Below the pieces are notes generated by a model, which saw nothing but the letters and a program-made list of their open reading frames with translations, was not told the origin of the DNA and ran no database searches. A stretch of DNA of 37,572 nucleotides from Escherichia phage SKA5, in the sequence record OR670062.1, one strand, 5' to 3'. Made by a program: the position numbers and the translations under genes. Shown in pieces: positions 36,207 through 37,572 of this stretch. The stretch's first letter is position 1; each line of letters starts with the position of its first letter.

Positions 36207-37473
36207 TGGTTTTTCCCTCATCGTTTTTTGGGGGCTTAAAATCTCCTGCCGGGTTAGCAGCATTCACGCTTACCAGCATCTCGTCCAGCCCTTCAACCGG
36301 ATTCATATCCTCGAATGCGCGGGCCTCATTACGGCTCATCCATCCATCGGTAATAGCGAAGTGATAGAATTGCGCGCGCTCCTGCGGAGTTCCGCGTAAA
36401 AGCCCCGTCAGATTGAACCTGACGTAATACCCGGCGGCTAACTCAGCGCGGGTAAACAAGCGACGGTTAAGCTCCTGCTCCCAGTTCGTCACCCACGGCA
36501 TCATCGTGTAGCGGACAAACTGAATCGCCTGCGCAGAAATATTGGAGAAGGTGGCTTTTTCGAGGTCATTAATCATGTGCGCAGGAATATTGAAAATACC
36601 GGCGATCATTGAACGGTTCAGCTTCATCATGTCAATGATCTGAGCGTCAACTGGCGACACAGTCAGTGCCTTGTAATCCAGATCGGCTGGCAGCAGCATG
36701 GTTTTGTTTTCCTGGCGGCGTAACGCCTGCGATGCCTTCTGCCACTGATCTTTAAGCCAGCCCCAGCTTTCCTTATTGAGTCCGCTTTTAACGGATACTA
36801 TCCCCGCCGGACGGGCATTACCGCTGAAGAAGCTTTCTGTGTACTTCTGACCGCTCATCCCCATGCCTATTGTTTCGGCATGTTGCATAATCGGACTCAG
36901 CCCCATCTTCTGATTATTACCCAGCGCACGGATGTGGATCATATCGTCCGGACTGATCGCAAACGCCCCATATTCGTTGTACAAACCGTAGGTATATCGG
37001 CCACCAGTATTCATCAGCGTCGTTTCCCACGGCATACAGCAATCCAGGGATATGACTTCACCGCGACGATTACGTTTCACCCAGGTATACCCATTCCCCC
37101 AGCCAAGGATGTGACGTTGCTTCAGTTCGCGCCATTTGTAGCTGGTTTGCCAGGTATTGGGCTCATCATGAACCAGATAAAACGCCGGATGATCGCGTGC
37201 GGGTTCAACCTTCCCCTTGTGCCTGCGCATAACATGCAACGGCATCTGGGCAAGGCTGGAAGACAGGACATAGATACAGGAATACACCGCAGCCAGTTTC
37301 ATCGCAGTCTCAGGACTGACATAAACGTCTGCCCGGAACAGCCCATCAGTATCAACGGCATCCCCGGTTATCGGGGTGGAAGGATTCTCCAGTGATTTAC
37401 TTCTGAACAGAGCATCAAGCAGCACGCGTCCCCCTTCTGGCCATAGCCAGTGCGCCCACCAGCAGTAAAGCAC
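36199..37473 (-). CDS. portal protein (HK97 family)
   Basis: ORF-track boundaries. The likely true start is the GTG at 37425 (AGGGGGA SD), which overlaps the stop of the junction-spanning small ORF. Confidence 0.85.
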   Translation of the reverse strand: MLYCWWAHWLWPEGGRVLLDALFRSKSLENPSTPITGDAVDTDGLFRADVYVSPETAMKLAAVYSCIYVLSSSLAQMPLHVMRRHKGKVEPARDHPAFYLVHDEPNTWQTSYKWRELKQRHILGWGNGYTWVKRNRRGEVISLDCCMPWETTLMNTGGRYTYGLYNEYGAFAISPDDMIHIRALGNNQKMGLSPIMQHAETIGMGMSGQKYTESFFSGNARPAGIVSVKSGLNKESWGWLKDQWQKASQALRRQENKTMLLPADLDYKALTVSPVDAQIIDMMKLNRSMIAGIFNIPAHMINDLEKATFSNISAQAIQFVRYTMMPWVTNWEQELNRRLFTRAELAAGYYVRFNLTGLLRGTPQERAQFYHFAITDGWMSRNEARAFEDMNPVEGLDEMLVSVNAANPAGDFKPPKNDEGKTNE

Positions 37474-37572
37474 CGGACAAAATCAGAGCCGGAGCCATAC
37501 CAAACTGCAGGTAAACCCCGCACGTAAGCAGGCCAAAACCAGCCAGCCCGATAACATCAGCAATTAGTGATT
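37415..37572 (-). CDS. small hydrophobic protein, partial at window edge (continues at nt 4..1 if the sequence is circular)
   Basis: Reading the minus strand across the end-to-start junction gives a 53-aa ORF (MKSLIADVIGLAGFGLLTCGVYLQFGMAPALILSGALLLVGALAMARRGTRAA). Its ATG overlaps the terminase-large stop (ATGA) and its stop overlaps the portal start. Confidence 0.35.
   Translation of the reverse strand, partial: SLIADVIGLAGFGLLTCGVYLQFGMAPALILSGALLLVGALAMARRGTRAA

Follow-up and report, generated by a model that had tools for sequence, protein, structure and literature searches.

A hydrophobic microprotein gene between the terminase and portal genes of Escherichia phage SKA5 and its relatives

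A described counterpart of the gene analysed here is ymfR (b1150) in e14 of Escherichia coli K-12. Its 60-amino-acid product is the same protein as SfII_03 of phage SfII and Sb3 of phage ST64B, and its gene lies between the genes for the large terminase (terL; in e14 the remnant ymfN/aaaE) and the portal (in e14 the remnant beeE), overlapping the latter by one nucleotide. The protein encoded in K-12 (locus L110, 5550-5732) is identical to SfII_03 and carries the RefSeq name 'IPR020297 domain-containing protein'. In phage lambda, a small gene in the same position, between A/terL and B/portal, encodes gpW, a soluble, charged head-completion (head-tail joining) protein. We analysed the corresponding position in Escherichia phage SKA5 (sequence record OR670062.1), the 37,572 nucleotides of which are here called the window. 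The gene found there, called X, runs across the two ends of the window and encodes 53 amino acids with the same two-helix hydrophobic architecture as YmfR; the protein is almost entirely hydrophobic, in contrast to the soluble, charged gpW. X is almost certainly a genuine gene for a membrane microprotein. It is also a gene that is already known, as a hypothetical protein in RefSeq and as a family of unknown function in PHROGs, with a sister family that has a K-12 gene name.

X and YmfR differ in several respects. X overlaps the terL stop, whereas YmfR starts 11 nucleotides after it. The MKxLxxD N-terminus of X is absent from YmfR, the polar C-terminal tail of which is longer than that of X. 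Moreover, the YmfR-type protein of SfII goes with a portal that is only 28% identical to the portal of the window.

Gene X at the ends of the window

When the two window ends are connected on the minus strand (4..1, then 37572..37415), the result is an open reading frame (ORF) of 162 nucleotides, which reads ATG AAA TCA CTA ... GCT GCT TGA and translates into the 53 amino acids MKSLIADVIGLAGFGLLTCGVYLQFGMAPALILSGALLLVGALAMARRGTRAA. On this strand, bases 12..1 of the window read ...TTAATTCTATGA, and the sequence continues from 37572 downward with AATCACTAATTGCT... The features of the junction are the following.

1..1734, minus strand: terL, large terminase, 577 amino acids, with Pfam TerL_ATPase and TerL_nuclease; supported by the annotation of the identical prophage region by the Prokaryotic Genome Annotation Pipeline (PGAP)
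1..4, minus strand: X nucleotides 1-4 (ATG and the first base of codon 2); the ATG at 4..2 overlaps the terL stop at 3..1 as ATGA
37415..37572, minus strand: X nucleotides 5-162 (from the second base of codon 2 to the TGA stop), the last 11 of which are shared with the portal gene
37502..37567, minus strand: predicted transmembrane (TM) helix 1, approximately residues 4-25, from hydropathy, AlphaFold2 and alignments; G13 and G20 invariant, D7 near-invariant at the N-terminal edge, GxYLxxG motif
37439..37495, minus strand: predicted TM helix 2, approximately residues 28-46, from hydropathy, AlphaFold2 and the alignment; G35 invariant; followed by the basic tail ARRGTRAA
37429..37435, minus strand: Shine-Dalgarno (SD) sequence of the portal gene, AGGGGGA, within X codons R47-R48-G49 and 3 nucleotides ahead of the GTG
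37417..37415, minus strand: X stop codon TGA
36199..37425, minus strand: portal gene, 408 amino acids, GTG start at 37425..37423; Pfam Phage_portal, E=2.9e-98

The overlap between X and the portal gene is 11 nucleotides, with the TGA of X lying 8 nucleotides beyond the portal GTG. A preliminary description, made from the sequence alone, had proposed a 53-amino-acid ORF with two hydrophobic segments across the window ends, with an ATG that overlaps the terL stop as ATGA and a stop that overlaps a portal gene starting at GTG 37425 behind the SD sequence AGGGGGA. The translation, the hydropathy profile and the AlphaFold2 model agree with the first of these claims, both overlaps lie where they had been placed, and the portal start is backed by comparison with relatives. 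The window ends had also been taken to be contiguous in the phage, and this was the case in every relative examined. The 1200-nucleotide junction sequence aligns in one piece to phage SfV with 99.0% identity, and a junction sequence of 435 nucleotides is present at >=80% coverage in 259 of the 5426 complete E. coli genomes, in many of them with 100% identity. The prophage of E. coli AMSHJX01 carries the counterparts of window bases 1 and 37572 side by side, at 20120/20121, with neither a gap nor a duplication. A relative of X is encoded in 324 loci of IMG/VR; 80 of these were fetched and examined, and the ORF was intact and internal to the contig in all of them (80/80).

The gene order of the window (portal, head, contractile tail, integrase, early genes, lysis genes, HNH, terS, terL) is that of a circularised SfV-like genome and not that of a prophage cut at its att sites, which suggests a circular or permuted assembly that was re-oriented at a gene boundary. 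The terL stop codon ends precisely at window base 1, and it looks as if the re-orientation cut through the 4-nucleotide overlap of terL and X and thereby split X.

A frame of 53 open codons is expected by chance with a probability of (61/64)^53 = 0.078, or about 8%. The ORF alone is therefore insignificant, and the case for a gene depends on conservation in relatives. The proposal that the ORF is real held on this point, since the ORF is conserved between terL and portal in related phages, under purifying selection, with a fixed length and a wide spread. PGAP annotates the identical ORF in E. coli prophages, where the 3' end of terL is followed by a 162-nucleotide 'hypothetical protein' gene and a portal start 11 nucleotides before the stop of X. 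The RefSeq protein WP_000838376.1, annotated in one such prophage (locus L003), is identical to X of the window, and the O157:H7 variant is WP_000838374.1. The 27 database homologues are 62-98% identical to X and 52-53 amino acids long, apart from a few with mis-called starts, and the replacements of hydrophobic residues are conservative.

The ratio of nonsynonymous to synonymous substitution rates (dN/dS) of X was 0.09-0.32 over the non-overlapping codons 2-49 in eight diverse DNA loci. Synonymous sites were near saturation among these loci, and the variable columns by codon position numbered 24/18/38, a bias towards third positions. The 53-codon length, the ATGA overlap, the GTG located 11 nucleotides before the X stop and the SD sequence were all retained in 80/80 IMG/VR loci. 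The SD sequence of the portal gene was kept as AGGGGG or AGGAGG in all 80 and in the diverse loci, and the ATGA overlap was retained in distant family members too. A profile search of 1.84 billion cluster representatives yielded 140 clusters (at the 50% identity level) with E<=1e-3, nearly all of 45-60 amino acids.

The grand average of hydropathy (GRAVY) of X is 1.25, and residues 4-46 are hydrophobic, broken only by a short turn in the middle (QFGMAP). AlphaFold2, run on an alignment of 20 sequences, placed helices at residues 2-25 and 27-52 with a mean predicted local distance difference test (pLDDT) score of 90.4. Hydropathy and this model thus support two hydrophobic helices, for which a TM-helix prediction had been advised in the preliminary description. 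Across the 140 clusters, the family pattern is M-[KR]-x-[LI]-x-x-D...G13...G20-[VL]-Y-L-x-x-G26...G35, in which D7 and G26 are near-invariant and G13, G20 and G35 are invariant. The C-terminal tail is basic (RRGTR, with R47, R48 and R51), and by the positive-inside rule X is predicted to be an inner-membrane hairpin with both termini in the cytoplasm.

G13 and G20 are seven residues apart and hence on one helix face which, together with G35 in helix 2, points to close packing of the helices or to oligomerisation. Some of the conservation of 'RRG' may be due to the SD sequence of the portal gene, which is encoded by the same codons. A lipoprotein signal with LLTC as the lipobox was considered and rejected, since relatives have S, A or G in place of C19. 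A Foldseek search of the AlphaFold2 model against BFVD gave a best E of 1.5 and none below E=1, a result that is not meaningful for a hairpin of 53 residues.

No purine-rich tract or SD sequence was found ahead of the X ATG (upstream sequence CGGACGATGATCTCTTAATTCT). A scan for promoters and terminators revealed no promoter-like site on the same strand near X and one weak terminator-like match inside the ORF, at chance level. With neither an SD sequence nor a promoter of its own, and with an ATG that overlaps the terL stop, X is probably translated by ribosomes that end terL and restart. In such a scheme, ribosomes would terminate on terL and reinitiate on X, while initiation on the portal gene would be driven by its SD sequence, possibly helped by ribosomes finishing X 8 nucleotides downstream. 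Judging from the anatomy of the junction, a coupled chain of translation from terL through X to the portal gene is likely. RNA folding, in which a structure masking the portal start was sought, showed the junction to be no more structured than shuffled sequences (z=-1.09). The G+C content of X is 0.549, compared to 0.539 and 0.519 for the neighbours.

The SfV records (NC_003444 / U82619, 2392-3666) begin the portal gene at an upstream GTG, equivalent to window 37473, assign 424 amino acids to the protein and leave X unannotated. We rejected this start, which is not conserved in relatives: even an O157:H7 prophage with 97.5% identity lacks the upstream GTG, and in other relatives the portal frame is closed by in-frame stops 1-13 codons ahead of the true start. 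At the site that corresponds to 37425, Symbiopectobacterium (L007) and one metagenomic relative (L024) have an ATG, and the N-terminus of the SfII portal, VFFSGLFQRKS, aligns from residue 1 with VLLDALFRSKS of the window. Judged by these comparisons, GTG 37425 is the correct portal start and the SfV model is over-extended (window 37426-37473, minus strand), with the consequence that X is hidden and unannotated in the SfV records.

The X family and its position in other phages

X matches phrog_7105 (unknown function) over the full length (residues 1-52 of 52, E=3.2e-22) and has the characters of the PHROG 7105 / WP_000838376 family: approximately 50 amino acids, two hydrophobic helices, the residues D7, G13, G20, G26 and G35, and a position between terL and an HK97-type portal that overlaps both. 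The PHROG scan of X returned only phrog_7105, 502, 4810 and 16366, none of which is annotated as a head assembly chaperone. Scans of X and 37 family members against Pfam, NCBIfam and PADLOC identified no family, with X itself lacking a Pfam match at E<=10.

YmfR defines phrog_502, 'membrane protein' (E=2.5e-28), which is the second-best match of X (E=5.7e-6). A bridging family member, P0123, matches both PHROGs (9e-12, 9e-9), and YmfR obtains 21 bits on the X-family profile, compared to <=11 bits for shuffled sequences. The direct similarity between the X family and YmfR is weak, with an hhalign probability of 12.5% at 30% identity, and YmfR matches phrog_7105 only at E=0.022. These sequence comparisons suggest that X (PHROG 7105) and YmfR/Sb3 (PHROG 502) may be distantly related members of one superfamily; X itself is not a member of PHROG 502.

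The gpW sequence scored -1.4 bits on the X-family profile, similar to shuffled sequences, and X gave no Pfam match at E<=10 to gpW-type proteins or to the 'putative head-tail joining' proteins of DUF1056. A YmfR-type protein in vB_EcoM-689R6 (ON470584, L028 3118-3294) bears the label 'head-tail joining protein W', which is probably a mislabel derived from position, as the protein is not similar to gpW of lambda.

Every X-family member with a readable context stands directly before the portal gene, including members with profile E-values of about 1e-5, and most are located directly between terL and portal with overlaps of 4 and 11 nucleotides, as in the window. The usual gene order is HNH, terS (Terminase_4), terL, X, portal, S78 protease and capsid, and the contexts include siphovirus-tailed phages besides contractile-tailed ones. 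In locus L025, an extra ORF of 58 amino acids separates X from the next gene upstream; in neither L025 nor L019 could the upstream neighbour be confirmed as terL. In SfII, ST64B and phi467, the slot between terL and portal holds a 60-amino-acid 'membrane protein' of the YmfR type.

The occupancy of the slot was surveyed in eight phages that were picked by portal similarity only and not by X, with SfV counted as the first sampled match. A two-TM ORF was present in the slot in five of the eight. The slot ORFs of the sampled phages scored 21-34 bits on the X-family profile, compared to <=6-11 bits for composition-matched shuffles. Portal identities to the window and slot contents were as follows.

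SfV: portal 99.8% identical; window-type X, unannotated
Halomonas QHHSV-1: portal 58%; family member split by a 1-nucleotide frameshift
Vibrio K338: portal 35%; two-TM ORF of 67 amino acids
Burkholderia vB_E253: portal 33%; two-TM ORF of 61 amino acids, unannotated
E. coli phi467: portal 27%; YmfR-type ORF
Serratia Swain: portal 39%; no slot gene
Pseudomonas phi2: portal 29%; no slot gene
mEpX1: portal HK97-like; no slot gene, terL joined directly to portal
Streptococcus Javan405: portal 33.5%; unrelated gene of 208 amino acids

A slot gene is thus common in HK97-type head modules, but not universal. The preliminary description had called a membrane-type peptide inside a packaging operon unusual. 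Within this head-module lineage it is not, as exemplified by ST64B sb3, SfII SfII_03, e14 ymfR and the five of eight sampled phages; the gene is, however, absent from mEpX1 and some other phages.

Several relatives deserve separate mention. In QHHSV-1 (KX879752, L111 1014-1200), only the N-terminal half of 30 amino acids is annotated, and the rest lies in another frame that extends up to the portal ATG; the 1-nucleotide frameshift is either a sequencing error or the mark of a pseudogene. In vB_E253 (PV072766, L114 903-1088), the unannotated ORF of 61 amino acids fills the 186-nucleotide 'gap' between terL and portal, overlaps the terL stop by 4 nucleotides and reaches 23 bits on the family profile. 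A single chromosome of Symbiopectobacterium purcellii (CP189882; L007, L008, L009 and L014-L018) contains at least five copies of the head module with identical small ORFs, and two of these copies carry Pyocin_S/Cytotoxic and Cloacin_immun genes between the lysis genes and HNH. The stretch from the lysis cassette to the HNH-terminase genes of the related phage L005 includes a gene (JGI 3300005318 contig, 2303-2761, minus strand) whose product has an AcrIF11-like ADP-ribosyltransferase domain (anti-CRISPR type).

Inheritance with the portal and possible roles of X

X is equally close to terL and portal on the genome. The identity of X correlates with that of the portal at r=0.92, with that of the terL tail at r=0.72 and with that of the terL body at r=0.28, based on 36 pairs that are drawn from nine loci and are not independent data points. 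Between the window and the loci L005, L007 and L013, the terL body is 38-40% identical, X 65-72% and the portal 81-84%. Compared with SfII, the terL of the window is about 100% identical over residues 1-550 and 40% identical in the last 27, after which the type of X switches and the portals are 28% identical. The last 27 terL codons (4..84, minus strand) are exchanged with X and the portal, and the mosaic breakpoint is located just upstream of them.

On this pattern of identities, the terL tail, X and the portal appear to constitute one exchange unit, in which case X would belong to the portal/head module and not to the terminase. In lambda, the C-terminal tail of gpA is the prohead-binding part. 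A Rosetta-stone fusion of X to portal or terL was searched for among the 140 clusters; none was seen, and no hit exceeded 131 amino acids.

The reading that we favour, tentatively and well short of calling it probable, is that X works with the portal/head module at the inner membrane; it is based on the co-inheritance, the tight coupling and the long-term retention of the slot. The site of action would be the cytoplasmic membrane, with the portal or the nascent procapsid as partner, and X may tether or chaperone the assembly of the portal ring or the packaging vertex, in a manner resembling gp40 of phage T4. T4 needs the viral chaperone gp40 to assemble its membrane-bound gp20 portal initiator at the inner membrane (PMC9958956). 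The likeness of gp40 to X concerns the proposed role only, and no sequence relation was detected with PHROG or Pfam. X adjoins the portal gene, and T4 gene 40 is not known to be adjacent to gene 20. In PRD1, the small integral membrane proteins P20/P22 link the packaging ATPase to the unique vertex (PMC5850374), a precedent for packaging machinery that is anchored in a membrane. The packaging system of PRD1 is non-homologous and its virion contains an internal membrane, whereas tailed phages are not known to have a membrane in the virion. The broader proposal, that X and its YmfR-type relatives make up one superfamily of inner-membrane microproteins with a wide spread, which are co-adapted to HK97-type portals as partners and nucleate or tether the portal ring or packaging vertex, is more doubtful still.

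Several observations weigh against a role with the portal. Besides the dependence among the 36 pairs, the co-inheritance may reflect only where recombination is tolerated, given that a terL tail has to fit its portal. Constraint on X is weaker than on the portal, with a 2.35-fold higher dN and a dN/dS of 0.09-0.32 compared to 0.01-0.09. Related portals are found without the X gene in the HK97-like mEpX1, Pseudomonas phi2 and Serratia Swain; these portals manage without X, which is thus not a universal requirement for portals of this kind. No sequence or fold likeness of X to characterised proteins was detected in Pfam, NCBIfam, PADLOC or BFVD. Finally, literature searches for ymfR, sb3, DUF1056, the WP accessions and small membrane proteins between terminase and portal retrieved no functional study, and ymfR appeared only in gene lists.

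Among the alternatives, we regard it as unlikely that X is a holin-like or lysis-timing peptide. Such a peptide would oligomerise via its glycine-rich faces and depolarise or permeabilise the membrane, or modulate the true holins, and would thereby tie the timing of lysis to the expression of the packaging genes. X is like the class II holins and pinholins in being small, with two TM helices, a predicted N-in/C-in topology and a basic C-terminal tail. The conserved G13 and G20 on one helix face, plus G35, are consistent with this possibility, as is a sub-threshold match of one 65-amino-acid family member to Phage_holin_3_6 (E=0.0028, 18.1 bits compared to a cut-off of 28.4). However, none of 37 members matches a holin family in Pfam at E<=0.1, X of the window matches none at E<=10, and the family profile gives the S21 pinholin sequence no higher a score than shuffles. 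The genes to which X is coupled are terL and portal, never an endolysin gene, and X is inherited with the portal. Furthermore, the window contains a full lysis cassette elsewhere (5018..3750, minus strand), as do its relatives.

5018..4632, minus strand: Phage_holin_8
4645..4364, minus strand: Phage_holin_3_7
4364..3750, minus strand: GH19 endolysin

Likewise improbable is an accessory membrane protein that acts against the host or competing phages, by superinfection exclusion or envelope modification, and is merely lodged in the late operon, as is the exclusion-type protein gp15 of HK97. Exclusion factors are often small inner-membrane proteins, so that the form of X would be a common one among them, and the sister PHROG 502, labelled 'membrane protein', is placed in the category 'moron, auxiliary metabolic gene and host takeover'. 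This category stems only from the label, however, and X has no PADLOC match, no SD sequence and no promoter-like site on its coding strand, while its G+C content is similar to that of the flanks. The slot is occupied across portals that are 27-35% identical, in phages of Escherichia, Vibrio, Burkholderia and Halomonas, which is core-like retention rather than moron-like turnover.

There is only a slim chance that X is a translational spacer or leader, such that the act of translating X would deliver ribosomes from terL to the portal start and set the terL:portal ratio, with no job for the peptide. The invariant overlaps at both ends of X, its missing SD sequence and the position of the portal SD sequence inside X agree with such a function. 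Yet the amino-acid sequence is under purifying selection, the glycines and the aspartate are maintained over approximately 140 clusters, and length and two-helix architecture are fixed, whereas a spacer would not need a conserved hydrophobic hairpin. Nor is the junction RNA unusually structured relative to shuffles, and HK97-like phages join terL directly to portal.

That X arose as a chance ORF, or results only from connecting two window ends that lie apart in the phage, is hardly credible: the 8% probability of an open frame and the missing annotation in the GenBank and RefSeq records of SfV would fit, but the junction is unbroken in SfV as well as in 259 E. coli genomes and 80/80 IMG/VR loci, X is widely conserved under purifying selection, and the annotation gap in SfV is explained by the over-extended portal start.

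Meaning for the family

X belongs to a very common, unstudied gene family with a K-12 counterpart, ymfR, in the most conserved part of the tailed-phage genome. The family is often missed or mislabelled, as seen from the unannotated genes in SfV and vB_E253, the frameshifted gene in QHHSV-1 and the 'protein W' of vB_EcoM-689R6. The window itself appears to be a circularly permuted SfV-like genome that was opened precisely at the terL stop, so that a real gene was divided. New in this analysis are the confirmation of the junction in relatives, the correction of the SfV portal start, the suggested link between PHROG 7105 and YmfR, the observation that X travels with the portal, and the annotation gaps.

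The inheritance of X with the portal, and not with the terminase body, provides a concrete hypothesis on its role. If the proposal of a portal-ring tether is true, X would be the first membrane-linked head-assembly factor outside the T4-like phages, one that has been overlooked as the gene is often unannotated.

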